Source: a virus (taxonomy: Duplodnaviria; Heunggongvirae; Uroviricota; Caudoviricetes). Taken from it: a DNA stretch of 45,219 bases. The DNA is taken from IMG/VR virus record IMGVR_UViG_646206259_000004. One strand, written 5' to 3'. The number at the start of each line of letters is the position of its first letter. Position 1 is the stretch's first letter. Positions 17,283 through 45,219 of the stretch are shown in pieces. Under the pieces are notes generated by a model. It saw only the letters and a list, made by a program, of their open reading frames with translations. It was not told where the DNA came from and did no database searches. The position numbers were made by a program, and so were the translations under genes.

Positions 17283-17510
17283 ATGGCATTTAAACACTAT
17301 GACGTGGTCAGGGCGGTATCGCCGTCAGACCTTGCGAAACGACTGACACAAAAACTGAAGGAGGGCTGGCAGCCGTTTGGTAGTCCGGTGGCCATAACCC
17401 CTTATACCCTGATGCAGGCGATTGCAGCAGAAGGTGATGTGGTGGTCAGTGGTGCAACTGAGCCGGATTGGTACTACGTCATCGTACTGGCCCGGCATTC
17501 CAGGCCATAA
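17283..17510 (+). CDS. Hypothetical phage protein upstream of the lysis cassette
   Basis: 75 aa ORF with GGAGG RBS 5 nt before the ATG. Confidence 0.5.
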   Translation: MAFKHYDVVRAVSPSDLAKRLTQKLKEGWQPFGSPVAITPYTLMQAIAAEGDVVVSGATEPDWYYVIVLARHSRP

Positions 17511-19518: not shown

Positions 19519-20145
19519 ATGAACCGCGTACTGTGCGTGGTCATCATTGCCCTGCTGGTGGCCTGTGGTGCGCTTAGTCTGGGGCTGAATCATTACCGTG
19601 ATAACGCCATTACCTACAAAGCCCAGCGCGACAAAAATGTCAGAGAACTGAAGCTGGCGAACGCGGCAATTACTGACATGNNNNNNNNNNNNNNNNNNNN
19701 NNNNNNNNNNNNNNNNNNNNNNNNNNNNNNNNNNNNNNNNNNNNNNNNNNNNNNNNNNNNNNNNNNNNNNNNNNNNNNNNNNNNNNNNNNNNNNNNNNNN
19801 NNNNNNNNNNNNNNNNNNNNNNNNNNNNNNNNNNNNNNNNNNNNNNNNNNNNNNNNNNNNNNNNNNNNNNNNNNNNNNNNNNNNNNNNNNNNNNNNNNNN
19901 NNNNNNNNNNNNNNNNNNNNNNNNNNNNNNNNNNNNNNNNNNNNNNNNNNNNNNNNNNNNNNNNNNNNNNNNNNNNNNNNNNNNNNNNNNNNNNNNNNNN
20001 NNNNNNNNNNNNNNNNNNNNNNNNNNNNNNNNNNNNNNNNNNNNNNNNNNNNNNNNNNNNNNNNNNNNNNNNNNCGCGACTGATAATAATGCAAAAACAA
20101 CTTGAAGGGGCACAGCTATACATTCGAGAGCAATGCCTCAGATAA
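19519..20145 (+). CDS. Rz: Rz i-spanin (interior N-masked; embedded Rz1 not visible)
   Basis: N-terminus ...[31 protein letters not shown] and C-terminus [20 protein letters not shown] match lambda Rz; 19681-20074 is N-masked. Confidence 0.8.
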
Positions 20146-21576: not shown

Positions 21577-23117
21577 NNNNNNNNNNNNNNNNNNNNNNNN
21601 NNNNNNNNNNNNNNNNNNNNNNNNNNNNNNNNNNNNNNNNNNNNNNNNNNNNNNNNNNNNNNNNNNNNNNNNNNNNNNNNNNNNNNNNNNNNNNNNNNNN
21701 NNNNNNNNNNNNNNNNNNNNNNNNNNNNNNNNNNNNNNNNNNNNNNNNNNNNNNNNNNNNNNNNNNNNNNNNNNNNNNNNNNNNNNNNNNNNNNNNNNNN
21801 NNNNNNNNNNNNNNNNNNNNNNNNNNNNNNNNNNNNNNNNNNNNNNNNNNNNNNNNNNNNNNNNNNNNNNNNNNNNNNNNNNNNNNNNNNNNNNNNNNNN
21901 NNNNNNNNNNNNNNNNNNNNNNNNNNNNNNNNNNNNNNNNNNNNNNNNNNNNNNNNNNNNNNNNNNNNNNNNNNNNNNNNNNNNNNNNNNNNNNNNNNNN
22001 NNNNNNNNNNNNNNNNNNNNNNNNNNNNNNNNNNNNNNNNNNNNNNNNNNNNNNNNNNNNNNNNNNNNNNNNNNNNNNNNNNNNNNNNNNNNNNNNNNNN
22101 NNNNNNNNNNNNNNNNNNNNNNNNNNNNNNNNNNNNNNNNNNNNNNNNNNNNNNNNNNNNNNNNNNNNNNNNNNNNNNNNNNNNNNNNNNNNNNNNNNNN
22201 NNNNNNNNNNNNNNNNNNNNNNNNNNNNNNNNNNNNNNNNNNNNNNNNNNNNNNNNNNNNNNNNNNNNNNNNNNNNNNNNNNNNNNNNNNNNNNNNNNNN
22301 NNNNNNNNNNNNNNNNNNNNNNNNNNNNNNNNNNNNNNNNNNNNNNNNNNNNNNNNNNNNNNNNNNNNNNNNNNNNNNNNNNNNNNNNNNNNNNNNNNNN
22401 NNNNNNNNNNNNNNNNNNNNNNNNNNNNNNNNNNNNNNNNNNNNNNNNNNNNNNNNNNNNNNNNNNNNNNNNNNNNNNNNNNNNNNNNNNNNNNNNNNNN
22501 NNNNNNNNNNNNNNNNNNNNNNNNNNNNNNNNNNNNNNNNNNNNNNNNNNNNNNNNNNNNNNNNNNNNNNNNNNNNNNNNNNNNNNNNNNNNNNNNNNNN
22601 NNNNNNNNNNNNNNNNNNNNNNNNNNNNNNNNNNNNNNNNNNNNNNNNNNNNNNNNNNNNNNNNNNNNNNNNNNNNNNNNNNNNNNNNNNNNNNNNNNNN
22701 NNNNNNNNNNNNNNNNNNNNNNNNNNNNNNNNNNNNNNNNNNNNNNNNNNNNNNNNNNNNNNNNNNNNNNNNNNNNNNNNNNNNNNNNNNNNNNNNNNNN
22801 NNNNNNNNNNNNNNNNNNNNNNNNNNNNNNNNNNNNNNNNNNNNNNNNNNNNNNNNNNNNNNNNNNNNNNNNNNNNNNNNNNNNNNNNNNNNNNNNNNNN
22901 NNNNNNNNNNNNNNNNNNNNNNNNNNNNNNNNNNNNNNNNNNNNNNNNNNNNNNNNNNNNNNNNNNNNNNNNNNNNNNNNNNNNNNNNNNNNNNNNNNNN
23001 NNNNNNNNNNNNNNNNNNNNNNNNNNNNNNNNNNNNNNNNNNNNNNNNNNNNNNNNNNNNNNNNNNNNNNNNNNNNNNNNNNNNNNNNNNNNNNNNNNNN
23101 NNNNNNNNNNNNNNNNA

Positions 23118-23213: not shown

Positions 23214-24766
23214 AACGAACGCCTGTCCTGATTGATGTGAACGGCGTTCCGCTTCGGGAGAGCCTCAGCTACACCGGTGGCGGTGCAGGATTTGGCGGGC
23301 AAATGGCAGAGTGGTTGCCACCCTCGCAGAGTGCCGATGCGGCCCTGCTGCCCGCGTTGCGTCTGGGGAATGCCCGTGCAGATGATCTGGTGCGCAATAA
23401 CGGAATAGCGGCCAATGCGGTGGCCCTGCATAAGGATCACATTGTCGGGCATATGTTTCTGATTAGCTACCGTCCGAACTGGCGCTGGCTGGGGATGCGG
23501 GAGACCGCGGCAAAAAGTTTTGTCGATGAGGTGGAGGCGGCCTGGTCAGAATACGCAGAAGGGATGTTTGGTGAGATCGACGTGGAAGGGAAACGCACGT
23601 TTACGGAATTTATCCGTGAAGGTGTGGGCGTTCATGCGTTTAACGGCGAAATCTTTGTGCAGCCGGTCTGGGATACGGAGAGTACGCAACTGTTTCGTAC
23701 GCGTTTTAAAGCCGTGAGTCCGAAACGGGTGGACACGCCAGGACACGGTATCGGGAACCGTTTTCTGCGGGCCGGTGTGGAGGTTGATCGATATGGCCGT
23801 GCCGTTGCGTACCATATCTGTGAGGATGATTTTCCTCGCTCCGGGAGTGGACGATGGGAACGGATCCCGCGTGAACTACCCACCGGGCGTCCGGCCATGC
23901 TGCATATTTTCGAGCCGGTGGAGGACGGGCAGACCCGTGGAGCCAATCAGTTTTACAGCGTTATGGAACGGCTGAAGATGCTCGATTCCCTGCAGGCAAC
24001 ACAGCTTCAGTCGGCCATAGTGAAGGCGATGTATGCAGCGACGATTGAAAGTGACCTTGATACCGAAAAGGCCTTTGAATATATCGCCGGTGCGCCGCAG
24101 GGGCAGAAGGATAATCCGCTTATTAATATTCTGGATAAGTTCTCCACCTGGTATGACACGAATAGCGTGACGCTGGGCGGTGTCAAAATTCCGCACCTTT
24201 TCCCCGGTGATGATCTGAAACTTCAGACCGCGCAGGATTCAGACAATGGATTTTCGGCGCTTGAACAGGCGCTGCTGCGGTATATCGCCGCCGGTCTTGG
24301 CGTTTCCTACGAACAGTTGTCCCGTGATTACTCGAAGGTCAGTTACTCAAGTGCCCGCGCATCCGCCAATGAGTCGTGGCGCTATTTTATGGGGCGGCGA
24401 AAATTTATTGCGTCCCGGCTGGCCACGCAGATGTTTTCCTGCTGGCTGGAAGAGGCACTTCTTCGGGGGATTATTCGTCCGCCACGGGCACGGTTTGATT
24501 TTTATCAGGCGCGATCAGCCTGGTCACGGGCTGAGTGGATTGGAGCCGGAAGAATGGCCATTGACGGGCTCAAGGAGGTTCAGGAATCAGTGATGCGCAT
24601 TGAGGCCGGACTGAGCACGTATGAGAAAGAGCTGGCGCTGATGGGCGAGGATTATCAGGACATTTTCCGCCAGCAGGTCAGGGAATCTGCAGAGCGGGAA
24701 AAAGCCGGACTCTCACGTCCGGTGTGGATAGCGCAGGCGTATCAGCAGCAGATAGCGGAGAGTCGC
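23210..24766 (+). CDS. B: Portal protein B (3' end N-masked)
   Basis: MKRTPVLIDVNGVPLRESLSYTGGGAGFGGQMAEWLPP... closely resembles lambda gpB; runs into the mask at 24767. Confidence 0.9.
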
Positions 24767-25934
24767 NNNNNNNNNNNNNNNNNNNNNNNNNNNNNNNNNN
24801 NNNNNNNNNNNNNNNNNNNNNNNNNNNNNNNNNNNNNNNNNNNNNNNNNNNNNNNNNNNNNNNNNNNNNNNNNNNNNNNNNNNNNNNNNNNNNNNNNNNN
24901 NNNNNNNNNNNNNNNNNNNNNNNNNNNNNNNNNNNNNNNNNNNNNNNNNNNNNNNNNNNNNNNNNNNNNNNNNNNNNNNNNNNNNNNNNNNNNNNNNNNN
25001 NNNNNNNNNNNNNNNNNNNNNNNNNNNNNNNNNNNNNNNNNNNNNNNNNNNNNNNNNNNNNNNNNNNNNNNNNNNNNNNNNNNNNNNNNNNNNNNNNNNN
25101 NNNNNNNNNNNNNNNNNNNNNNNNNNNNNNNNNNNNNNNNNNNNNNNNNNNNNNNNNNNNNNNNNNNNNNNNNNNNNNNNNNNNNNNNNNNNNNNNNNNN
25201 NNNNNNNNNNNNNNNNNNNNNNNNNNNNNNNNNNNNNNNNNNNNNNNNNNNNNNNNNNNNNNNNNNNNNNNNNNNNNNNNNNNNNNNNNNNNNNNNNNNN
25301 NNNNNNNNNNNNNNNNNNNNNNNNNNNNNNNNNNNNNNNNNNNNNNNNNNNNNNNNNNNNNNNNNNNNNNNNNNNNNNNNNNNNNNNNNNNNNNNNNNNN
25401 NNNNNNNNNNNNNNNNNNNNNNNNNNNNNNNNNNNNNNNNNNNNNNNNNNNNNNNNNNNNNNNNNNNNNNNNNNNNNNNNNNNNNNNNNNNNNNNNNNNN
25501 NNNNNNNNNNNNNNNNNNNNNNNNNNNNNNNNNNNNNNNNNNNNNNNNNNNNNNNNNNNNNNNNNNNNNNNNNNNNNNNNNNNNNNNNNNNNNNNNNNNN
25601 NNNNNNNNNNNNNNNNNNNNNNNNNNNNNNNNNNNNNNNNNNNNNNNNNNNNNNNNNNNNNNNNNNNNNNNNNNNNNNNNNNNNNNNNNNNNNNNNNNNN
25701 NNNNNNNNNNNNNNNNNNNNNNNNNNNNNNNNNNNNNNNNNNNNNNNNNNNNNNNNNNNNNNNNNNNNNNNNNNNNNNNNNNNNNNNNNNNNNNNNNNNN
25801 NNNNNNNNNNNNNNNNNNNNNNNNNNNNNNNNNNNNNNNNNNNNNNNNNNNNNNNNNNNNNNNNNNNNNNNNNNNNNNNNNNNNNNNNNNNNNNNNNNNN
25901 NNNNNNNNNNNNNNNNNNNNNNNNNNNNNNNNNT

Positions 25935-28068: not shown

Positions 28069-28602
28069 ATGGCGATAAAAGGGCTTGATCAGGCGATTGA
28101 CAATCTGAGCCGGGTTCGTAAAAACGCCATTCCGGCGGCTTCAGCAATGGCCATTAACCGCGTGGCCACAACGGCGATTAATCAGTCTTCATCACAGGTT
28201 GCCCGGGAGACAAAGGTTCGCCGGAAACTGGTTAAGGAACGGTCCAGACTGAAACGGGCGACGGTCAGAAATCCGAATGCCAGAATTATCGTTAACCGCG
28301 GTGATCTCCCTGTGATTAAGCTGGGGATCAGGATGCTGGGGCGTCGCCCGAACAGCATACTTAAAGCCGGTCAGCATCGGTATCAGCGGGCATTTATTCA
28401 GAGATTAAAAAATGGTCGCTGGCATGTCATGCAGCGTGTGGCCGGGAAAAACCGTTACCCCATTGATGTGGTGAAAATCCCGATGGCGGCCCCACTGAAA
28501 CAGGCATTTGATGAGAATGTTGACCGTATCCGGCGTGAACGCCTGCCTAAAGAACTGGCATACGCGCTGAAACAACAACTGAGGATTGCAATAAAACGAT
28601 GA
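28069..28602 (+). CDS. Z: Tail protein Z
   Basis: MAIKGL.QA..NLSR....A.P.A.AMAINRVA..AI.QS.SQVARETKVRRKLVKER.RLKRATV.NP.ARI.VNRGDLPVIKLG... matches lambda gpZ. Confidence 0.95.
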   Translation: MAIKGLDQAIDNLSRVRKNAIPAASAMAINRVATTAINQSSSQVARETKVRRKLVKERSRLKRATVRNPNARIIVNRGDLPVIKLGIRMLGRRPNSILKAGQHRYQRAFIQRLKNGRWHVMQRVAGKNRYPIDVVKIPMAAPLKQAFDENVDRIRRERLPKELAYALKQQLRIAIKR

Positions 28603-28994
28603 AACACACTGACATTCGTGCCGCAGTGCTGGATGCACTCGAGCAGCATGAACACGGGGCGACGCTGTTTGATGGTCGCCCCGTTGTTTTTGACGAAGAG
28701 GATTTTCCTGCGATCGCGGTTTATCTGACGGATGCAGAGTATACCGGTGAAGAGCTGGATGCAGATACCTGGCGGGCCACGCTGCATATTGAGGTGTTTT
28801 TACCGGCACAGGTACCGGATTCAGAGCTTGATCAGTGGATGGAAAGCCGGATTTACCCGGCGATGACCGCGATCCCGGCACTGGCAGGACTGATTACCAC
28901 GATGGTTACGCAGGGCTATGAGTATCGTCGTGATGACGATATGGCGTTATGGAGTTCTGCAGATCTGACTTATTCCATTACATACGAGATGTGA
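28599..28994 (+). CDS. U: Tail terminator protein U
   Basis: 131 aa; [47 protein letters not shown]...[25 protein letters not shown] matches lambda gpU. Confidence 0.95.
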
Positions 28995-30639: not shown

Positions 30640-33324
30640 TCTTGTTATTGACCTGAGTCTGGATGCTGTCCGTTTCGATGAGCAGATGAGCCGGGTAAGG
30701 CGTCATTTTTCAGGTCTGGATACCGACGCCAGAAAAACCGCCAGTGCTGTTGAACAGGGCCTGAGCCGCCAGGCGCTGGCTGCACAAAAAGCCGGGATTT
30801 CCGTCGGGCAGTATAAAGCGGCCATGCGAACCCTGCCCGCACAGTTTACGGATATCGCCACGCAGCTTGCCGGTGGTCAGAATCCCTGGTTGATCCTGCT
30901 GCAACAGGGCGGTCAGGTGAAGGACTCCTTCGGCGGGATGATCCCCATGTTCAGGGGGCTTGCCGGTGCGATCACCCTGCCGATGGTCGGGGTCACCTCG
31001 CTGGCGGTGGCGACAGGTGCGCTGGCGTACGCCTGGTACCAGGGCGACGCCACGCTTTCAGAATTTAATAAAACGCTGGTCCTTTCCGGCAATCAGGCCG
31101 GACTGACTGCCGATCGTATGCTGACGCTCTCAAGAGCCGGGCAGGCAGCAGGGCTGACGTTTAACCAGGCGAGAGAGTCACTGGCAGCCTTGGTGAATGC
31201 CGGTGTGCGTGGTGGTGAACAGTTTGATGCCATCAACCAGAGTGTCGCGCGTTTTGCGTCTGCATCCGGTGTGGAGGTGGATNNNNNNNNNNNNNNNNNN
31301 NNNNNNNNNNNNNNNNNNNNNNNNNNNNNNNNNNNNNNNNNNNNNNNNNNNNNNNNNNNNNNNNNNNNNNNNNNNNNNNNNNNNNNNNNNNNNNNNNNNN
31401 NNNNNNNNNNNNNNNNNNNNNNNNNNNNNNNNNNNNNNNNNNNNNNNNNNNNNNNNNNNNNNNNNNNNNNNNNNNNNNNNNNNNNNNNNNNNNNNNNNNN
31501 NNNNNNNNNNNNNNNNNNNNNNNNNNNNNNNNNNNNNNNNNNNNNNNNNNNNNNNNNNNNNNNNNNNNNNNNNNNNNNNNNNNNNNNNNNNNNNNNNNNN
31601 NNNNNNNNNNNNNNNNNNNNNNNNNNNNNNNNNNNNNNNNNNNNNNNNNNNNNNNNNNNNNNNNNNNNNNNNNNNNNNNNNNNNNNNNNNNNNNNNNNNN
31701 NNNNNNNNNNNNNNNNNNNNNNNNNNNNNNNNNNNNNNNNNNNNNNNNNNNNNNNNNNNNNNNNNNNNNNNNNNNNNNNNNNNNNNNNNNNNNNNNNNNN
31801 NNNNNNNNNNNNNNNNNNNNNNNNNNNNNNNNNNNNNNNNNNNNNNNNNNNNNNNNNNNNNNNNNNNNNNNNNNNNNNNNNNNNNNNNNNNNGTTCCGTA
31901 ACGTGACGGCAGAGCAGATTGCGTATGTTGCACAGCTGCAGCGTTCCGGAGACGAGGCCGGGGCATTGCAGGCGGCGAACGATATCGCCACGAAAGGCTT
32001 TGATGAGCAGACCCGTCGCCTGAAAGAAAACATGGGAACACTGGAGACCTGGGCGGATAAAACAGGGAAGGCATTCAAATCGATGTGGGATGCCATTCTG
32101 GATATCGGTCGTCCGGAATCCTCAGCGGATATGCTCGCCAGTGCGCAGAAGGCATTTGATGAGGCGGATAAAAAATGGCAGTGGTACCAGAGCCGGAGCC
32201 AGCGCCGGGGAAAGACCTCCTCTTTTCGTGCGAACCTTCAGGGGGCATGGGATGACCGGGAAAATGCCCGTCTGGGTCTGGCAGCGGCCACGCTGCAGTC
32301 GGATATGGAAAAAGCCGGTGAACTGGCGGCAAGGGACAGGGCTGAGCGTGAGTCGTCACAGCTGAAGTATACCGGAGAGGCGCAGAAGGCGTATGAGCGC
32401 CTGCAGACGCCGCTGGATAAATATACCGCCCGTCAGAAAGAGCTGAATAAGGCCCTGAAAGACGGAAAAATCCTGCAGGCGGATTACAACACGCTGATGG
32501 CGTCGGCAAAAAAGGATTATGAATCGACGCTGAAAAAGCCGTCAGGTGTGAAGGTGTCTGCCGGTGAGCGCCAGGAAGACCGGGCGCATGCAGCCCTGCT
32601 GGCGCTTGAAACCGAGCTCAGGACGCTGGAAAAACACAGCGGTGTGAATGAGAAAATCAGCCAGCAGCGCCGGGATTTATGGGAAGCGGAAAGTCAGTAT
32701 GTGGTCCTGAAAGAGGCCGCCACGAAACGGCAGTTATCTGAGCAGGAAAAATCCCTGCTGGCTCATGAGAAAGAGACGCTGGAGTACAAACGCCAGCTGG
32801 CTGAGCTGGGAGACAAGATTGAACACCAGAAGCGGCTGAATGAGCTGGCACAGCAGGCGGCGCGGTTTGAACAGCAGCAAAGCGCGAAGCAGGCGGCAAT
32901 CAGCGCAAAAGCCCGCGGCCTCACCGACCGTCAGGCGCAGCGGGAGTCGGAAGAGCAGCGCCTTCGTGAGGTGTACGGTGATAATCCGGCTGCGCTGGCG
33001 AAGGCCACATCGGCACTGAAGAACACCTGGTCTGCGGAGGAGCAGCTTCGTGGAAGCTGGATGGCCGGGATGAAGTCCGGCTGGGGAGAGTGGGCGGAAA
33101 GTGCGACGGACAGTTTTTCGCAGGTTAAAAGTGTGGCCACGCAGACCTTTGACGGTATTGCACAGAATATGGCGGCGATGCTGACCGGCAGCGAACAGAA
33201 CTGGCGGGGATTCACCCGTTCCGTGCTGTCCATGATGACAGAAATTCTGCTTAAGCAGGCAATGGTGGGGATTGTCGGGAGTATCGGCAGCGCCATTGGC
33301 GGGGCTGTTGGTGGCGGCGCATCC
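30620..33324 (+). CDS. H: Tape measure protein H (two internal/3' stretches N-masked; continues beyond 33324)
   Basis: N-terminus MSQPVGDLVIDLSLDAVRFDEQMSRVRRHFSG... and later segments (AEQIAYVAQLQRSGDEAGALQAAN..., ...LLKQAMVGIVGSIGSAIGGAVGGGAS) match lambda gpH. The frame differs on the two sides of the 31283-31892 mask, so mask length is not codon-faithful. Confidence 0.9.
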
Positions 33325-34932
33325 NNNNNNNNNNNNNNNNNNNNNNNNNNNNNNNNNNNNNNNNNNNNNNNNNNNNNNNNNNNNNNNNNNNNNNNNNNNN
33401 NNNNNNNNNNNNNNNNNNNNNNNNNNNNNNNNNNNNNNNNNNNNNNNNNNNNNNNNNNNNNNNNNNNNNNNNNNNNNNNNNNNNNNNNNNNNNNNNNNNN
33501 NNNNNNNNNNNNNNNNNNNNNNNNNNNNNNNNNNNNNNNNNNNNNNNNNNNNNNNNNNNNNNNNNNNNNNNNNNNNNNNNNNNNNNNNNNNNNNNNNNNN
33601 NNNNNNNNNNNNNNNNNNNNNNNNNNNNNNNNNNNNNNNNNNNNNNNNNNNNNNNNNNNNNNNNNNNNNNNNNNNNNNNNNNNNNNNNNNNNNNNNNNNN
33701 NNNNNNNNNNNNNNNNNNNNNNNNNNNNNNNNNNNNNNNNNNNNNNNNNNNNNNNNNNNNNNNNNNNNNNNNNNNNNNNNNNNNNNNNNNNNNNNNNNNN
33801 NNNNNNNNNNNNNNNNNNNNNNNNNNNNNNNNNNNNNNNNNNNNNNNNNNNNNNNNNNNNNNNNNNNNNNNNNNNNNNNNNNNNNNNNNNNNNNNNNNNN
33901 NNNNNNNNNNNNNNNNNNNNNNNNNNNNNNNNNNNNNNNNNNNNNNNNNNNNNNNNNNNNNNNNNNNNNNNNNNNNNNNNNNNNNNNNNNNNNNNNNNNN
34001 NNNNNNNNNNNNNNNNNNNNNNNNNNNNNNNNNNNNNNNNNNNNNNNNNNNNNNNNNNNNNNNNNNNNNNNNNNNNNNNNNNNNNNNNNNNNNNNNNNNN
34101 NNNNNNNNNNNNNNNNNNNNNNNNNNNNNNNNNNNNNNNNNNNNNNNNNNNNNNNNNNNNNNNNNNNNNNNNNNNNNNNNNNNNNNNNNNNNNNNNNNNN
34201 NNNNNNNNNNNNNNNNNNNNNNNNNNNNNNNNNNNNNNNNNNNNNNNNNNNNNNNNNNNNNNNNNNNNNNNNNNNNNNNNNNNNNNNNNNNNNNNNNNNN
34301 NNNNNNNNNNNNNNNNNNNNNNNNNNNNNNNNNNNNNNNNNNNNNNNNNNNNNNNNNNNNNNNNNNNNNNNNNNNNNNNNNNNNNNNNNNNNNNNNNNNN
34401 NNNNNNNNNNNNNNNNNNNNNNNNNNNNNNNNNNNNNNNNNNNNNNNNNNNNNNNNNNNNNNNNNNNNNNNNNNNNNNNNNNNNNNNNNNNNNNNNNNNN
34501 NNNNNNNNNNNNNNNNNNNNNNNNNNNNNNNNNNNNNNNNNNNNNNNNNNNNNNNNNNNNNNNNNNNNNNNNNNNNNNNNNNNNNNNNNNNNNNNNNNNN
34601 NNNNNNNNNNNNNNNNNNNNNNNNNNNNNNNNNNNNNNNNNNNNNNNNNNNNNNNNNNNNNNNNNNNNNNNNNNNNNNNNNNNNNNNNNNNNNNNNNNNN
34701 NNNNNNNNNNNNNNNNNNNNNNNNNNNNNNNNNNNNNNNNNNNNNNNNNNNNNNNNNNNNNNNNNNNNNNNNNNNNNNNNNNNNNNNNNNNNNNNNNNNN
34801 NNNNNNNNNNNNNNNNNNNNNNNNNNNNNNNNNNNNNNNNNNNNNNNNNNNNNNNNNNNNNNNNNNNNNNNNNNNNNNNNNNNNNNNNNNNNNNNNNNNN
34901 NNNNNNNNNNNNNNNNNNNNNNNNNNNNNNNT

Positions 34933-35881: not shown

Positions 35882-38800
35882 ATGGGTAAAGGAAGCAGTA
35901 AGGGGCATACCCCGCGCGAAGCGAGGGACAACCTGAAGTCCACGCAGCTGCTGAGTGTGATCGATGCCATCAGCGAAGGGCCGGTTGAAGGTCCGGTGGA
36001 CGGATTAAAAAGCGTGCTGCTGAACAGTACGCCGGTGCTGGACAGTGAGGGGAATACCAATATATCCGGTGTCACGGTGGTGTTCCGGGCAGGTGAGCAG
36101 GAGCAGACACCGCCGGAGGGATTTGAATCCTCCGGCTCCGAGACGGTGCTGGGTACGGAAGTGAAATATGACACGCCGATCACCCGGACCATCACGTCGG
36201 CAAACATCGACCGTCTGCGCTTTACCTTCGGTGTGCAGGCACTGGTGGAAACCACCTCAAAGGGGGACAGGAATCCGTCGGAAGTCCGCCTGCTGGTTCA
36301 GATCCAGCGTAACGGTGGCTGGGTGACGGAAAAAGACATCACCATTAAGGGCAAAACCACCTCGCAGTATCTGGCCTCGGTGGTGGTGGATAACCTGCCG
36401 CCGCGCCCGTTTAATATCCGGATGCGCAGAATGACGCCGGACAGCACCACAGACCAGCNNNNNNNNNNNNNNNNNNNNNNNNNNNNNNNNNNNNNNNNNN
36501 NNNNNNNNNNNNNNNNNNNNNNNNNNNNNNNNNNNNNNNNNNNNNNNNNNNNNNNNNNNNNNNNNNNNNNNNNNNNNNNNNNNNNNNNNNNNNNNNNNNN
36601 NNNNNNNNNNNNNNNNNNNNNNNNNNNNNNNNNNNNNNNNNNNNNNNNNNNNNNNNNNNNNNNNNNNNNNNNNNNNNNNNNNNNNNNNNNNNNNNNNNNN
36701 NNNNNNNNNNNNNNNNNNNNNNNNNNNNNNNNNNNNNNNNNNNNNNNNNNNNNNNNNNNNNNNNNNNNNNNNNNNNNNNNNNNNNNNNNNNNNNNNNNNN
36801 NNNNNNNNNNNNNNNNNNNNNNNNNNNNNNNNNNNNNNNNNNNNNNNNNNNNNNNNNNNNNNNNNNNNNNNNNNNNNNNNNNNNNNNNNNNNNNNNNNNN
36901 NNNNNNNNNNNNNNNNNNNNNNNNNNNNNNNNNNNNNNNNNNNNNNNNNNNNNNNNNNNNNNNNNNNNNNNNNNNNNNNNNNNNNNNNNNNNNNNNNNNN
37001 NNNNNNNNNNNNNNNNNNNNNNNNNNNNNNNNNNNNNNNNNNNNNNNNNNNNNNNNNNNNNNNNNNNNNNNNNNNNNNNNNNNNNNNNNNNNNNNNNNNN
37101 NNNNNNNNNNNNNNNNNNNNNNNNNNNNNNNNNNNNNNNNNNNNNNNNNNNNNNNNNNNNNNNNNNNNNNNNNNNNNNNNNNNNNNNNNNNNNNNNNNNN
37201 NNNNNNNNNNNNNNNNNNNNNNNNNNNNNNNNNNNNNNNNNNNNNNNNNNNNNNNNNNNNNNNNNNNNNNNNNNNNNNNNNNNNNNNNNNNNNNNNNNNN
37301 NNNNNNNNNNNNNNNNNNNNNNNNNNNNNNNNNNNNNNNNNNNNNNNNNNNNNNNNNNNNNNNNNNNNNNNNNNNNNNNNNNNNNNNNNNNNNNNNNNNN
37401 NNNNNNNNNNNNNNNNNNNNNNNNNNNNNNNNNNNNNNNNNNNNNNNNNNNNNNNNNNNNNNNNNNNNNNNNNNNNNNNNNNNNNNNNNNNNNNNNNNNN
37501 NNNNNNNNNNNNNNNNNNNNNNNNNNNNNNNNNNNNNNNNNNNNNNNNNNNNNNNNNNNNNNNNNNNNNNNNNNNNNNNNNNNNNNNNNNNNNNNNNNNN
37601 NNNNNNNNNNNNNNNNNNNNNNNNNNNNNNNNNNNNNNNNNNNNNNNNNNNNNNNNNNNNNNNNNNNNNNNNNNNNNNNNNNNNNNNNNNNNNNNNNNNN
37701 NNNNNNNNNNNNNNNNNNNNNNNNNNNNNNNNNNNNNNNNNNNNNNNNNNNNNNNNNNNNNNNNNNNNNNNNNNNNNNNNNNNNNNNNNNNNNNNNNNNN
37801 NNNNNNNNNNNNNNNNNNNNNNNNNNNNNNNNNNNNNNNNNNNNNNNNNNNNNNNNNNNNNNNNNNNNNNNNNNNNNNNNNNNNNNNNNNNNNNNNNNNN
37901 NNNNNNNNNNNNNNNNNNNNNNNNNNNNNNNNNNNNNNNNNNNNNNNNNNNNNNNNNNNNNNNNNNNNNNNNNNNNNNNNNNNNNNNNNNNNNNNNGTCG
38001 GTATCGTTCCGGATTGCCGCACCGGCAGCACCGTCGAGGATTGAGCTGACGCCGGGCTATTTTCAGATAACCGCCACGCCGCATCTTGCTGTTTATGACC
38101 CGACGGTACAGTTTGAGTTCTGGTTCTCGGAAAAGCGGATTACCGATATCAGGCAGGTTGAAACCACAGCCCGCTATCTTGGTACGGCGCTGTACTGGAT
38201 AGCCGCCAGTATCAATATCAAACCGGGCCATGATTATTATTTTTACGTTCGCAGTGTGAACACCGTTGGCAAATCGGCATTCGTGGAGGCTGTCGGTCGG
38301 GCGAGCGATGATGCGGAAGGTTACCTGGATTTTTTCAAAGGAGAAATCGGGAAAACACATCTGGCCCAGGAGTTGTGGACGCAGATTGATAACGGTCAGC
38401 TTGCGCCGGACCTGGCTGAAATCAGGACGTCCATTACGAATGTCAGCAATGAAATCACGCAGACCGTCAATAAAAAACTGGAAGACCAGAGTGCGGCAAT
38501 CCAGCAGATACAGAAAGTTCAGGTTGATACAAATAATAACCTGAACAGCATGTGGGCCGTGAAACTGCAGCAGATGAAGGACGGACGCCTTTATATTGCG
38601 GGTATCGGAGCCGGTATTGAGAATACGCCAGCAGGTATGCAGAGTCAGGTGCTTCTGGCTGCTGACCGGATTGCGATGATTAATCCTGCGAATGGCAACA
38701 CAAAGCCGATGTTTGTTGGTCAGGGCGATCAGATATTCATGAACGACGTGTTCCTGAAACGCCTGACGGCTCCGACCATTACCAGCGGCGGTAATCCTCC

Positions 38801-39429: not shown

Positions 39430-40029
39430 ATGCGTAAAGTTTGTGCAGTCATTTTGTCCGCAGCCATCTGTCTGTCCGTATCCGGTGCGCCTGCATGGGC
39501 GTCTGAACATCAGTCCACACTGAGCGCGGGGTATCTTCATGCCCGTACGAACGCTCCCGGCAGCGATAATCTGAACGGGATTAACGTGAAATACCGTTAT
39601 GAGTTTACGGACGCGCTGGGGCTGATTACGTCCTTCAGTTATGCCAATGCTGAGGATGAGCAAAAAACGCACTACAGCGATACCCGCTGGCATGAAGATT
39701 CCGTGCGTAACCGCTGGTTCAGCGTGATGGCGGGGCCGTCTGTACGCGTGAATGAATGGTTCAGCGCGTATTCGATGGCGGGTGTGGCTTACAGCCGTGT
39801 GTCGACTTTCTCCGGGGATTATCTCCGCGTAACTGACAACAAGGGGAAAACGCACGATGTGCTGACCGGAAGTGATGACGGTCGCCACAGCAACACGTCT
39901 CTGGCGTGGGGGGCTGGCGTGCAGTTTAACCCGACCGAATCCGTGACCATTGACCTTGCTTATGAAGGTTCCGGTAGTGGCGACTGGCGAACGGATGCAT
40001 TTATTGTTGGTATCGGATACCGTTTCTGA
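39430..40029 (+). CDS. lom: Lom outer-membrane protein (Ail/Lom family)
   Basis: 199 aa with signal peptide; GINVKYRYE.TD, SVMAGP, AYEGSGSGDWRTD.FIVG.GY.F motifs as in lambda Lom. Confidence 0.9.
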   Translation: MRKVCAVILSAAICLSVSGAPAWASEHQSTLSAGYLHARTNAPGSDNLNGINVKYRYEFTDALGLITSFSYANAEDEQKTHYSDTRWHEDSVRNRWFSVMAGPSVRVNEWFSAYSMAGVAYSRVSTFSGDYLRVTDNKGKTHDVLTGSDDGRHSNTSLAWGAGVQFNPTESVTIDLAYEGSGSGDWRTDAFIVGIGYRF

Positions 40030-40180: not shown

Positions 40181-43100
40181 ATGACAGTAAAAATTTCTGG
40201 CGTGCTTAAAGATGGCACAGGAAAACCAGTACAGAACTGCACCATTGTGCTGAAGGCCAGACGAACCAGCAGCACGGTGGTGGTGAACACGGTGGCCTCT
40301 GAAAATCCGGATGAAGCCGGACGTTACAGCATGGATGTTGAGCATGGTCAGTACAGCGTCACCCTGCTGGTTGAAGGTTTTCCGCCTTCACATGCCGGGA
40401 CCATTACCGTCTATGAAGGTTCCAGACCAGGTACGCTGAATGATTTTCTCGGTGCCATGACGGAGGATGATGTCCGACCGGAGGCACTGCGCCGCTTTGA
40501 GCAGATGGTGGAAGAGGTGTCACGTAACGCCTCCGCGGTTGCACAGAATACGGCAGCCGCGAAAAAATCAGCCAGCGATGCCAGTGCATCAGCCAGCGAG
40601 GCGGCAACTCATGCAACCGATGCTGCAGCCTCAGCACGTGCCGCCAGCACGTGCCGCCAGCACGTCAGCCGGACAGGCCGCGTCGTCGGCTCAGTCAGCG
40701 TCTTCCAGCGCAGGAACGGCATCGACAAAGGCCCGTGAAGCAGCAAAAAGTGCTGCTGCTGCAGAGTCATCAAAAAGCGCGGCAGCTACCAGCGCCAGTG
40801 CCGCGAAAACGTCAGAAACGAATGCCGCAGCGTCACAACAATCAGCAGCCACTTCTGCATCCACCGCGACCACGAAAGCGTCAGAAGCAGCCACTTCAGC
40901 ACGGGATGCGTCGGCTTCAAAAGAGGCGGCAAAATCATCAGAAACGAACGCAGCCTCGAGCGCCAGCAGCGCAGCTTCCTCGGCAACGGCGGCAGCAAAT
41001 TCTGCGAAGGCGGCAAAAACGTCCGAGACGAACGCCAGGTCTTCTGAAACGGCAGCGGGACAGAGCGCCTCAGCTGCGGCAGACTCAAAAACAGCGGCTG
41101 CATTATCTGCCAGTGCCGCGTCAACAAGTGCCGGGCAGGCCTCAGCCAGTGCCACCGCCGCCGGAAAATCGGCAGAAAGTGCTGCATCGTCTGCTTCAAC
41201 AGCCACAACGAAGGCTGGCGAAGCCGCTGTACAGGCCAGCGCAGCAGCGAGGTCTGCTTCCGCAGCGAAGACATCCAAGACGAACGCGAAAGCGTCGGAA
41301 ACCAGCGCAGAATCCTCAAAAACGGCTGCCGCATCGTCCGCCAGTTCGGCGGCGTCATCGGCATCATCTGCGTCTGCTTCAAAAGATGAGGCGACCAGAC
41401 AGGCGTCAGCAGCAAAGGGCAGCGCCACGACGGCATCCACGAAGGCGACAGAGGCAGCTGGCAGTGCGACGGCGGCAGCTCAGAGCAAAAGTACGGCGGA
41501 ATCCGCGGCAACGCGCGCTGAGACAGCGGCAAAACGGGCAGAGGATATTGCATCCGCCGTGGCGCTTGAGGATGCGAGCACGACGAAAAAGGGGATAGTA
41601 CAGCTCAGCAGTGCGACTAACAGCACTTCCGAGTCACTGGCGGCAACGCCAAAAGCCGTTAAGGCCGCGTATGAGCTGGCTAACGGGAAATACACCGCAC
41701 AGGATGCAACGACAGCACAGAAAGGGATAGTTCAGCTTAGCAACGCGACCAACAGCACATCTGAAATGCTGGCGGCAACGCCAAAGTCGGTAAAGGCAGC
41801 CTATGACCTTGCTAACGGGAAATATACTGCTCAGGACGCTACGACAGCACAAAAAGGAATTGTCCAGCTCAGTAGTGCAACCAACAGCACATCTGAAATG
41901 CTGGCGGCAACGCCAAAGTCGGTAAAGGCAGCCTATGACCTTGCTAACGGGAAATATACTGCTCAGGACGCTACGACAGCACAAAAAGGAATTGTCCAGC
42001 TCAGTAGTGCAACCAACAGCGCATCTGAAACGCTTGCCGCGACACCGAAAGCAGTGAAAGCAGCTAATAATAATGCGAATGGTCGGGTACCTTCTGCCCG
42101 TAAGGTGAATGGTAAGGCGCTTTCAGCGGATATAACACTGACGCCGAAAGATATTGGTACGCTTAACTCAACAACAATGTCATTCAGCGGTGGTGCTGGT
42201 TGGTTCAAATTAGCAACGGTAACCATGCCACAGGCGAGTTCTGTTGTTTCAATTACGTTGATTGGTGGTGCGGGATTTAACGTGGGGTCACCTCAACAGG
42301 CAGGTATATCTGAACTTGTTTTGCGTGCAGGTAATGGTAATCCGAAGGGGATTACTGGTGCTTTATGGCAGCGCACATCGACAGGGTTTACAAATTTTGC
42401 CTGGGTCAATACATCTGGTGATACTTACGATATTTACGTTGCAATCGGAAATTATGCGACTGGTGTAAATATTCAATGGGATTATACCAGTAATGCCAGC
42501 GTGACGATTCATACGTCACCAGCATATTCTGCTAATAAGCCGGAAGGGTTAACGGACGGTACAGTTTATTCACTCTATACGCCATCAGAGCAGTTTTATC
42601 CGCCTGGCGCACCAATCCCGTGGCCATCAGATACCGTTCCGTCTGGCTATGCCCTGATGCAGGGGCAGACTTTTGACAAATCTGCATACCCGAAACTTGC
42701 AGCCGCTTATCCGTCAGGCGTGATCCCTGATATGCGTGGCTGGACGATTAAGGGCAAACCCGCCAGTGGTCGTGCCGTATTGTCTCAGGAACAGGACGGC
42801 ATTAAATCGCACACCCACAGCGCCAGCGCATCCAGTACGGATTTGGGGACGAAAAACACATCGTCGTTTGATTACGGAACCAAATCCACGAATAACACCG
42901 GGGCGCATACGCACAGTCTGAGTGGCTCTACGGGGTCTGCCGGTGATCATACTCATGGTAATGGTATTCGTTGGCCAGGAGGCGGCGGTTCTGCGTTAGC
43001 ATTTTATGATGGCGGTGGGTTCACTTATGTCCAGGATTCACAGTATCAAGTAAGCCCGGGGACTTCTTCCCGTAGATCGTATTATCAACGTATTCAGACA

Positions 43101-43301
43101 CAGTCAGCAGGTGCTCATACCCACTCGCTGTCTGGTACTGCAGCAAGTTCTGGCGCACATGCACATACTGTAGGTATTGGTGCGCATACGCACTCCGTTG
43201 CGATTGGTTCACATGGACACACCATCACCGTTAACGCTGCTGGTAACGCGGAAAACACCGTCAAAAACATCGCATTTAACTATATTGTGAGGCTTGCATA
43301 A
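40181..43301 (+). pseudogene. stf: Side tail fibre stf, split by a +1 frameshift caused by a 13-bp tandem duplication (40633-40658)
   Basis: N-terminus MTVKISGVLKDGTGKPVQNCTI.LKARR... and C-terminus ...[31 protein letters not shown] match lambda Stf; track ORFs 40181..40738 and 40467..43301 are in different frames; CAGCACGTGCCGC occurs twice in tandem and removing one copy restores a single frame. Confidence 0.8.
41577..42065 (+). repeat. In-frame 132-bp (44 aa) tandem repeats within stf, about 3.7 copies
   Basis: Repeated unit [44 protein letters not shown]; copies 2 and 3 nearly identical at the DNA level. Confidence 0.85.
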
Positions 43302-43939: not shown

Positions 43940-44608
43940 CTATTTTTTCCCTGAAGCGGAAAACATTACTACAGTACCTTGAACCTTGGTTTTAACATTC
44001 TCGAAATGCTCTGAGAGTATATGTGTTAAGCCTTCTTCGGAATCTTTTGTGTTTGAAAAGATGCCTTTCTGATTGTAAATGCGCATCAGTTTTTGACCGA
44101 AGCTATTGTGCACAACTCCATCGCCAAGAATTGTGGCTCCGTATAGAGTTCCATCGTCAGTTAAGGCCTGCGCCGCATTGCGTATTACACAGCTTTTTGT
44201 AGATATATTTCCAGGCAGGCAGTGAAGAAGGTAAAACATGGAAATGGAATCAAATTGACCATGTAACGCCGCGGGATAAGGTTCAAAAACATCATGGCTA
44301 ATTTTATGTTTAATTTTTGATTCCCCAGCCCTTGTAGATGCCGCGTTCAGGCTAGCTTCGTTCAAATCCATTAAAGATATCAGACTACTCTCAGGTACGT
44401 GAGTAAGGTAAAACCCAGTTCCAACACCAATATCCAGATGGTTGTTACCTACATGTTCCAGAAAGTGTGGAAGAAGGTGTTCCTTTGTAGGACATCCCCA
44501 TGCAAGCCGATTTGATACTCCCAAAACCCACCAGTCATAAAGCTTTAGGGTAAGTGGTGTGTAAATTTTAGCCCCATCATCTGTGTTTTTTTTCATTGAT
44601 TTCACCAT
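43940..44608 (-). CDS. Class I SAM-dependent methyltransferase-like moron protein
   Basis: 222 aa, AT-rich, opposite strand; motif I-like LDIGVGTGFY, acidic post-I (LISLMDL) and motif II-like FDSISMFYLLH. Confidence 0.55.
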   Translation of the reverse strand: MVKSMKKNTDDGAKIYTPLTLKLYDWWVLGVSNRLAWGCPTKEHLLPHFLEHVGNNHLDIGVGTGFYLTHVPESSLISLMDLNEASLNAASTRAGESKIKHKISHDVFEPYPAALHGQFDSISMFYLLHCLPGNISTKSCVIRNAAQALTDDGTLYGATILGDGVVHNSFGQKLMRIYNQKGIFSNTKDSEEGLTHILSEHFENVKTKVQGTVVMFSASGKK

Positions 44609-44664
44609 GTTATAGTTTTATTTGTGAATTAAATCAATTATGGCGATGAATTACAAGGGGTTAA

Positions 44665-44934
44665 ATGCTGCCGCAGCATAGCGATATTGAAATAGCCTGG
44701 TATGCTTCGATACAGCAGGAGCCGAATGGCTGGAAGACCGTCACCACACAGTTCTACATCCAGGAATTCAGTGAGTATATTGCGCCACTGCAGGATGCTG
44801 TAGATCTGGAAATCGCAACGGAGGAAGAAAGATCGTTGCTGGAGGCATGGAATAAATATCGGGTATTGTTGAATCGTGTTGATACATCAACTGCACCTGA
44901 TATTGAGTGGCCTGCAAATCCTGTCAGGGAGTAA
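44665..44934 (+). CDS. Second Tfa-like ORF / tfa C-terminal duplicate with a different N-terminus
   Basis: 89 aa; C-terminal 55 aa (...[52 protein letters not shown]) near-identical to the Tfa C-terminus; N-terminal 35 aa unrelated. Confidence 0.6.
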
Positions 44935-45219
44935 TCATTGGGATTATGCCGCAGACACGTCGTATGCAGGAACGTGCTGCGGTTAGTTTGTGAGCTTTCG
45001 ATAGTGGTTGTTATTTTTGCCCTTATTTGTTCCGGAGGCCATGGTTCAATGGTCCGTCTGCCCCCTGTGGTGATGTCAGCAAAATCAGCCACTGCGCGAA
45101 CCACAATAGCCCGGGAAGATGCTGAAGATCACCAGGTAAAGCTATCAGCGCAGAAACTGGAAGAACTGCTCGCATCAATGGTTAAGGATGAGGTTGATCG
45201 CAATGATGGGATTTATTGA

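Follow-up and report, generated by a model that had tools for sequence, protein, structure and literature searches.

The window analysed here, a 45,219-nucleotide stretch of caudoviricete DNA (IMG/VR record IMGVR_UViG_646206259_000004), contains a complete-looking lambdoid prophage that is integrated in ompW and comprises int, xis, exo, repressor/cro, Q, lysis, terminase, head, tail, J, lom, stf and tfa genes. The position of lom fixes a lambda-like gene order, J-lom-stf-tfa, and the stop codon of the side tail fibre gene stf overlaps the ATG of the tail fibre assembly chaperone gene tfa (TAATG). Within stf, a 13-bp unit is repeated in tandem and the gene is divided between two reading frames. 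The features of this region are collected in Table 1.

Table 1. Features of the lom-stf-tfa region; positions are those of the window.
Feature	Position	Strand	Remarks
lom (Ail/Lom outer-membrane protein), directly upstream of stf	39430..40029	+	ORF map, RefSeq annotation
5' stf ORF, 185 aa	40181..40738	+	ORF map; ends with TGA
944-aa distal ORF	40467..43301	+	distal stf frame plus an out-of-frame leader
Period-13 tandem tract	40632..40665	+	full copies at 40632-40644 and 40645-40657; partial third copy CAGCACGT at 40658-40665
Distal stf reading frame	40665..43301	+	corresponds to intact-protein residues 158-1035; shifted by +1 from the start codon
132-bp tandem repeat in stf	41587..42034	+	3.4 copies, 88% matches; encodes the Phage_fiber_2 repeats
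tfa (tail fibre assembly chaperone), 194 aa	43301..43885	+	PF02413, E=1.3e-44

A 920-bp query across the duplicated site returned a single match of 100% identity, namely Escherichia coli N68 (NZ_CM165878.1). N68 was isolated from cerebrospinal fluid and belongs to a Dutch collection of neonatal meningitis strains of 1989-1997; its genome was assembled with hifiasm from PacBio Sequel II HiFi reads (SRR36640876) at 31x (PMC13460096). The unmasked segments of the window are identical to the N68 record except for one SNP at 23983, where the window has C while both N68 and the E. coli type strain ATCC 11775 have G; by coordinate conversion this position falls in the portal gene region, and the window may derive from a strain very closely related to N68, or else from another version of the record. 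Six runs of N interrupt the window (19681-20074, 21577-23116, 24767-25933, 31283-31892, 33325-34931 and 36459-37996). Their lengths do not equal those of the N68 sequence that they replace (394 N for 232 bases and 1540 N for 2506, for example), so that colinearity between the window and the public record is lost upstream of 37997.

Two further regions of the prophage may be described here. On the attR side, beyond tfa, positions 43940-45104 form a cargo and remnant region with a class I SAM-dependent methyltransferase gene on the minus strand (43940-44608), a second, fragmentary tail fibre assembly gene (44665-44934), and DUF4376 and ompW fragments that mark the attR end; this region looks like debris of earlier tail-fibre module exchanges. 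On the late-region side of the N68 prophage, three tRNA genes (Arg, Arg, Ile; 31292-31541 in N68 locus numbering) lie beside a DNA methyltransferase gene, an arrangement typical of lambdoid and Stx-like phages.

The tandem tract was recovered by Tandem Repeats Finder as a period-13 array of 2.6 copies with 100% matches and the consensus CAGCACGTGCCGC. Window positions 40620-40670 read ATGCTGCAGCCT CAGCACGTGCCGC CAGCACGTGCCGC CAGCACGT CAGCCGG, and an exact search of both strands of the entire window located the full unit at 40632 and 40645 only. The preliminary description of this DNA had placed the two copies at 40633-40645 and 40646-40658. The tandem repeat and its two full copies were recovered, but those positions need to be moved one base to the left, and CAGCACGT, the partial third copy, had been overlooked. 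The chance of 21 consecutive matches at a fixed lag is 2.3e-13 per position, or about 1e-6 for the entire window and 100 lags. A chance origin of the tract is negligible and is excluded, because the 13 bases constitute an insertion relative to 931 E. coli records in which the exact 101-bp single-copy context is found. The core of the unit, GCACGTGC, is a perfect 8-bp palindrome that occurs at 40634-40641 and again at 40647-40654, and it might have favoured template misalignment at the tract.

The duplication affects codons 151-157, just past the N-terminal collar domain. Since 13 bases are 12 plus 1, everything downstream is moved by +1 relative to the start codon. A codon count from the translations shows that the 185-aa product consists of native residues 1-157 followed by 28 out-of-frame residues; it contains the complete prophage tail fibre N-terminal (collar) domain. 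The distal frame encodes an Ala/Ser-rich shaft, four Phage_fiber_2 repeats, a collar domain and a receptor-binding tip like that of T4 gp37, and it has no convincing start of its own. The 132-bp repeat within this frame is a normal part of the intact stf allele. When one copy of the unit was deleted in silico, a single ORF of 1035 aa was obtained that runs from 40181 to the stop at 43301. Both the division of stf into 185-aa and 944-aa ORFs and the return of a continuous Stf-like frame upon removal of one copy, as had been proposed before, were thereby reproduced. The intact protein measures 1035 aa and not 185 plus 944 aa, because the beginning of the 944-aa ORF is an out-of-frame overlap. 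The one continuous reading frame of a functional lambda Stf-type gene is absent from the N68-type stf, which is filed as a pseudogene allele of the Stf family because it is split into these two ORFs. As the stf stop codon overlaps the tfa start, tfa may in addition suffer from polarity or under-expression caused by the premature stop in stf.

The identification of the gene as a side tail fibre gene, which had been made from the letters alone, was upheld by domain matches, structural matches and gene order. In the intact protein, Pfam places PF08400 (prophage tail fibre N-terminal domain) at residues 1-134 (E=1.5e-71), and further matches to PF03406 (four times), PF07484 and PF03335 account for four Phage_fiber_2 repeats, a collar domain and a Phage_fiber repeat beside the N-terminal domain. 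Among PDB entries, residues 1-94 match the lambda Stf collar chains in the Ur-lambda structures 9E7M and 9MGH (E=3.8e-47), while residues 788-1035 of the restored protein match the T4 gp37 receptor-binding tip 2XGF (E=1.6e-81), a region that falls in the distal frame of the window. The gene follows J and lom and directly precedes tfa, which is the position of a lambda Stf-type gene. On account of the PF08400 and collar matches, the gp37-like tip and the place between lom and tfa, the gene is classified by its sequence as a side tail fibre gene of the lambda Stf type.

To place the N68 allele among those of related prophages, a comparison that the preliminary description had called for, stf of N68 was aligned with the alleles of N61, ATCC 11775 and IHE3034. 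The tract holds exactly 13 extra bases relative to the three other alleles, and one 13-bp unit is in surplus when compared with every intact allele. ATCC 11775 encodes the orthologue as a continuous protein of 1035 aa (WP_000216497.1), and over 3.1 kb the N68 gene differs from that of ATCC 11775 by the 13-bp insertion and nothing else. When the comparison of these two strains was extended to 49 kb of prophage and flank, 75 events were counted within the aligned span, most of them clustered substitutions in J, terminase and portal genes. Two of the 75 are indels, namely the 13-bp duplication and a 1-bp indel in the lysozyme gene rrrQ. It is ATCC 11775 whose rrrQ is frameshifted by the latter (28366-28900 of its locus, at about window position 17451), and the N68 gene is intact. 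Eight sister strains sequenced in the same project and with the same pipeline as N68 (N61, N1, N56, N21, N58, N66, N44 and N54) are single-copy with an intact stf. Since they carry the same prophage, the pipeline as such does not create the duplication.

A decayed stf was also found in IHE3034 (NC_017628.1), where the same prophage occupies the same chromosomal site and the gene is annotated as 'frameshifted'. In contrast to N68, IHE3034 lacks the 13-bp duplication; the frame is broken there by an independent event, the loss of one base at gene position 835 (equivalent to window position 41015), which may be genuine or may stem from an old error in sequencing. Prophages lose stf repeatedly, through different lesions.

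Among 5,426 complete E. coli genomes, the duplication junction is present in one, N68. Searches of GTDB species representatives, IMG/VR and JGI metagenomes did not return the junction; three-copy alleles were absent from the approximately 932 complete-genome records with the tract context, and no record searched has the reciprocal allele with 13 bp deleted. An exact-sequence look-up of the 185-aa product gave seven further public contigs: three of more than 1 Mb (GCA_964045375.1 among them), a short draft contig (GCA_958312195.1), two from ENA gut-metagenome assemblies (ERZ28569419 and ERZ28597847), and one from the Logan assembly of SRR28295946. As the product includes the out-of-frame tail, an exact match requires the frameshift. 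The duplication was confirmed in all five carrier contigs that could be read, in four by the identical duplicated string and in the fifth (GCA_958312195.1) by 100% identity to N68 across the site. In the 90% protein cluster, of whose 219 members 40 were covered, the nine that were read in addition to the query are normal-frame partial sequences at contig ends and lack the out-of-frame tail. No literature naming the accession numbers of the other carrier samples was found.

The sequence around the duplication was then compared between carriers and non-carriers. Over 16,019 bp, chromosomal flank included, GCA_964045375.1 and N68 agree at 100% identity, a span in which ATCC 11775 differs from N68 at 33 sites. 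GCA_958312195.1 (6.6 kb) and the Logan contig (1.7 kb) are likewise 100% identical to N68, and the nearest single-copy complete genome, N61, differs from N68 at 9 sites in 7.8 kb. Between N68 and the two metagenome carrier contigs there are 4 and 10 differences, which lie in J and the repeat-rich part of stf, and one of these contigs has a 100-N gap. In these short-read assemblies the 132-bp repeat region is collapsed or gapped. The simplest reading of the metagenome variants is chimeric assembly of paralogous prophage genes, although they could also mean that the sequences diverged or recombined once the duplication existed, or that it had a second origin. A second genetic background was considered for the more divergent of these contigs and rejected, as no single-copy allele was found that matches it better than N68 does. 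Because the isolate and Logan carrier contigs that were read match N68 exactly, the sequences of the carriers fit descent from one origin.

The preliminary description had left three readings of the duplication side by side, and an assembly error was one of them. An extra unit that exists in the assembly only, in a genome that is truly single-copy, would agree with the occurrence of the junction in a single complete genome and with the fact that N68 is known from its assembly. However, the exact product and the junction recur in seven contigs of other projects that comprise long contigs, a short-read draft, metagenomes and a Logan unitig; the method by which N68 was sequenced is sound, with 31x HiFi reads of which any one spans the 34-bp tract; the same pipeline gave a single copy in eight sister strains; and the sole other indel that separates N68 from ATCC 11775 in 49 kb leaves the N68 gene intact. 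Since all five readable carrier contigs hold the same lesion, an assembly error is effectively excluded for the allele as such, N68 itself being judged from its assembly, and we consider that there is next to no probability that an artefact accounts for the extra unit. A similarly minute probability attaches to the idea that the split gene still functions, with the fibre being rebuilt from the collar piece and a separately initiated C-terminal fragment or by ribosomal frameshifting. A GGAGG motif lies 3 nt ahead of an ATG at 40470 in the distal frame, and gene callers give a distal ORF of 580 aa from a GTG at 41559. Yet all relatives encode one continuous 1035-aa protein, so that the two-frame architecture is not conserved, in contrast to the programmed ribosomal frameshift of lambda G/GT; inspection of the junction by reading disclosed no recognisable slippery heptamer; and a fragment without residues 1-94 would lack the collar by which Stf is attached to the Ur-lambda tail (PMC12617516). 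Rescue by an internal restart or by frameshifting was accordingly judged unlikely, given the unconvincing distal start and the single frame of the relatives.

The two remaining alternatives concern the behaviour of the tract over time. If it were a switch that turns side-fibre production on and off reversibly and at high frequency by alternating between one and two copies, as had also been proposed, the 21 bp of self-homology could in principle allow reversion by the same slippage, and phage that lose Stf can gain an advantage where the habitat is structured (PMC2762979). Like the simple-sequence contingency loci, the tract is a tandem repeat in a coding region whose copy number sets the frame; but its unit is 13 nt, the alternatives are merely 1.6 and 2.6 copies, and there is no long simple-sequence tract. 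The copy-number polymorphism among close relatives that characterises a phase-variable locus was found neither in the carrier haplotype nor in the 931 related records: one in approximately 932 complete-genome records is two-copy, three-copy and deletion alleles are absent, and GTDB representatives, IMG/VR and JGI metagenomes lack the junction. Moreover, the three isolate and Logan carrier contigs that were read have exactly the haplotype of N68, and those single-copy genomes that come closest have different ones, which points to a single, stably inherited event and not to frequent switching. The proposal of a slippage-prone switch is therefore not sustained, and we regard frequent switching as very unlikely. 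A slow, low-copy version, in which slippage remains reversible and the two-copy 'off' phase is kept by selection in one extraintestinal pathogenic clone, is the sole non-trivial reading left, and it too is highly improbable; if it were true, there would be a trade-off between fast adsorption and spread through structured habitats, for example gut mucus or biofilm. Alternatively, the site could be a mutational hot spot at which the duplication arose several times independently. The 8-bp repeat context is available in at least 931 records, and the two metagenome carriers depart from the N68 sequence. Against this, three isolate and Logan contigs are fully identical to N68 over 1.7-16 kb, no single-copy allele lies nearer to the variant metagenome contig than N68, and the variants sit in J and the repeat-rich stf, where paralogous prophage copies become mixed in metagenome assemblies from short reads; one of the two contigs is gapped. 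Repeated origin is likewise improbable to a high degree.

Taken together, our results suggest that the duplication very probably represents a genuine, heritable loss-of-function allele of stf that arose once, by slippage, in an ompW-integrated lambda-like prophage of an extraintestinal (neonatal meningitis) E. coli lineage. The claim of a 13-bp tandem duplication that frameshifts a lambda-Stf-like side tail fibre gene is agreed upon by the sequence, the ORFs and the intact alleles. Of the three readings put forward at the outset, the one that stands is the inactivating mutation comparable to the stf frameshift of laboratory lambda at another site, as the lesion recurs in the carriers and the intact alleles are single-copy.

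The ancestral sequence, CAGCACGT-GCCGC-CAGCACGT, is an 8-bp direct repeat with a 13-bp period, and short direct repeats at a fixed spacing are a classic substrate of replication slippage. We infer slippage from this anatomy, since a backward slip by one period yields exactly the product observed. During replication, the nascent strand would have slipped back by one 13-bp period and the unit would have been copied twice. Translation would then stop after 157 native and 28 missense residues, leaving the N-terminal collar domain in place but severed from the shaft and the gp37-like receptor-binding tip. Virions would be expected to lack side fibres and to depend on the central J fibre only, as do those of lambda PaPa, and the allele, having arisen once, would have been inherited stably in a clone that was sampled repeatedly. 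As in the slipped-strand mutations of the Streisinger and Albertini type, the duplication is perfect and its period equals the spacing of a pre-existing 8-bp repeat. There is nothing unusual about the present example relative to that type, and the reciprocal 13-bp deletion is found in no genome.

The expected phenotype may be read from lambda. In PaPa, stf is frameshifted some 400 codons from its start, at the boundary of orf401 and orf314 and far from codons 151-157, so that lesion and site differ between the two alleles, the N68 lesion being a 13-bp tandem duplication. The gene and its J-lom-stf-tfa context are the same, and in both cases a frameshift separates a collar-bearing N-terminal ORF from a distal ORF with the tip; in N68, too, the collar is parted from shaft and tip, as is typical of a PaPa-like loss-of-function allele. 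The two alleles differ further in that the intact protein of the N68-type gene measures 1035 aa, and in that PaPa derives from a laboratory stock whereas the N68 allele comes from natural clinical and gut E. coli lineages. In Ur-lambda, four trimeric fibres are anchored by a dodecameric collar that is built from Stf residues 1-94 and sits at the gpV/gpM junction; in PaPa, the frameshift blocks synthesis and assembly of the side fibres, and the phage is viable and plates undiminished but adsorbs 10-30x more slowly to OmpC+ cells (PMC12617516). Frameshifts in stf are readily selected in structured environments or where high adsorption is harmful, and one was present in 15 of 21 evolved lambda isolates (PMC2762979). 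By analogy with lambda, phage from the N68-type prophage would be expected to be viable, to lack side fibres and to adsorb more slowly.

The event is an ordinary slipped-strand duplication that has led to a pseudogene, is common to a small clone and is already flagged in the public annotation, where RefSeq/PGAP labels the N68 gene ACYX5J_RS13330 as 'phage tail protein, frameshifted'. It has little importance past bookkeeping, and no new question is opened by the N68 stf allele. In practical terms, the duplication can be used as a lineage marker for the carrier clone, and the allele needs repair by a 13-bp deletion if this prophage is to be induced or engineered, for instance with regard to the gp37-like Stf tip and host range. 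As regards the family, it is a new allele of a well-known kind and a further example of the decay of prophage tail-fibre genes by replication slippage: a natural counterpart of the famous lambda PaPa stf frameshift, persisting in a clinical E. coli clone.
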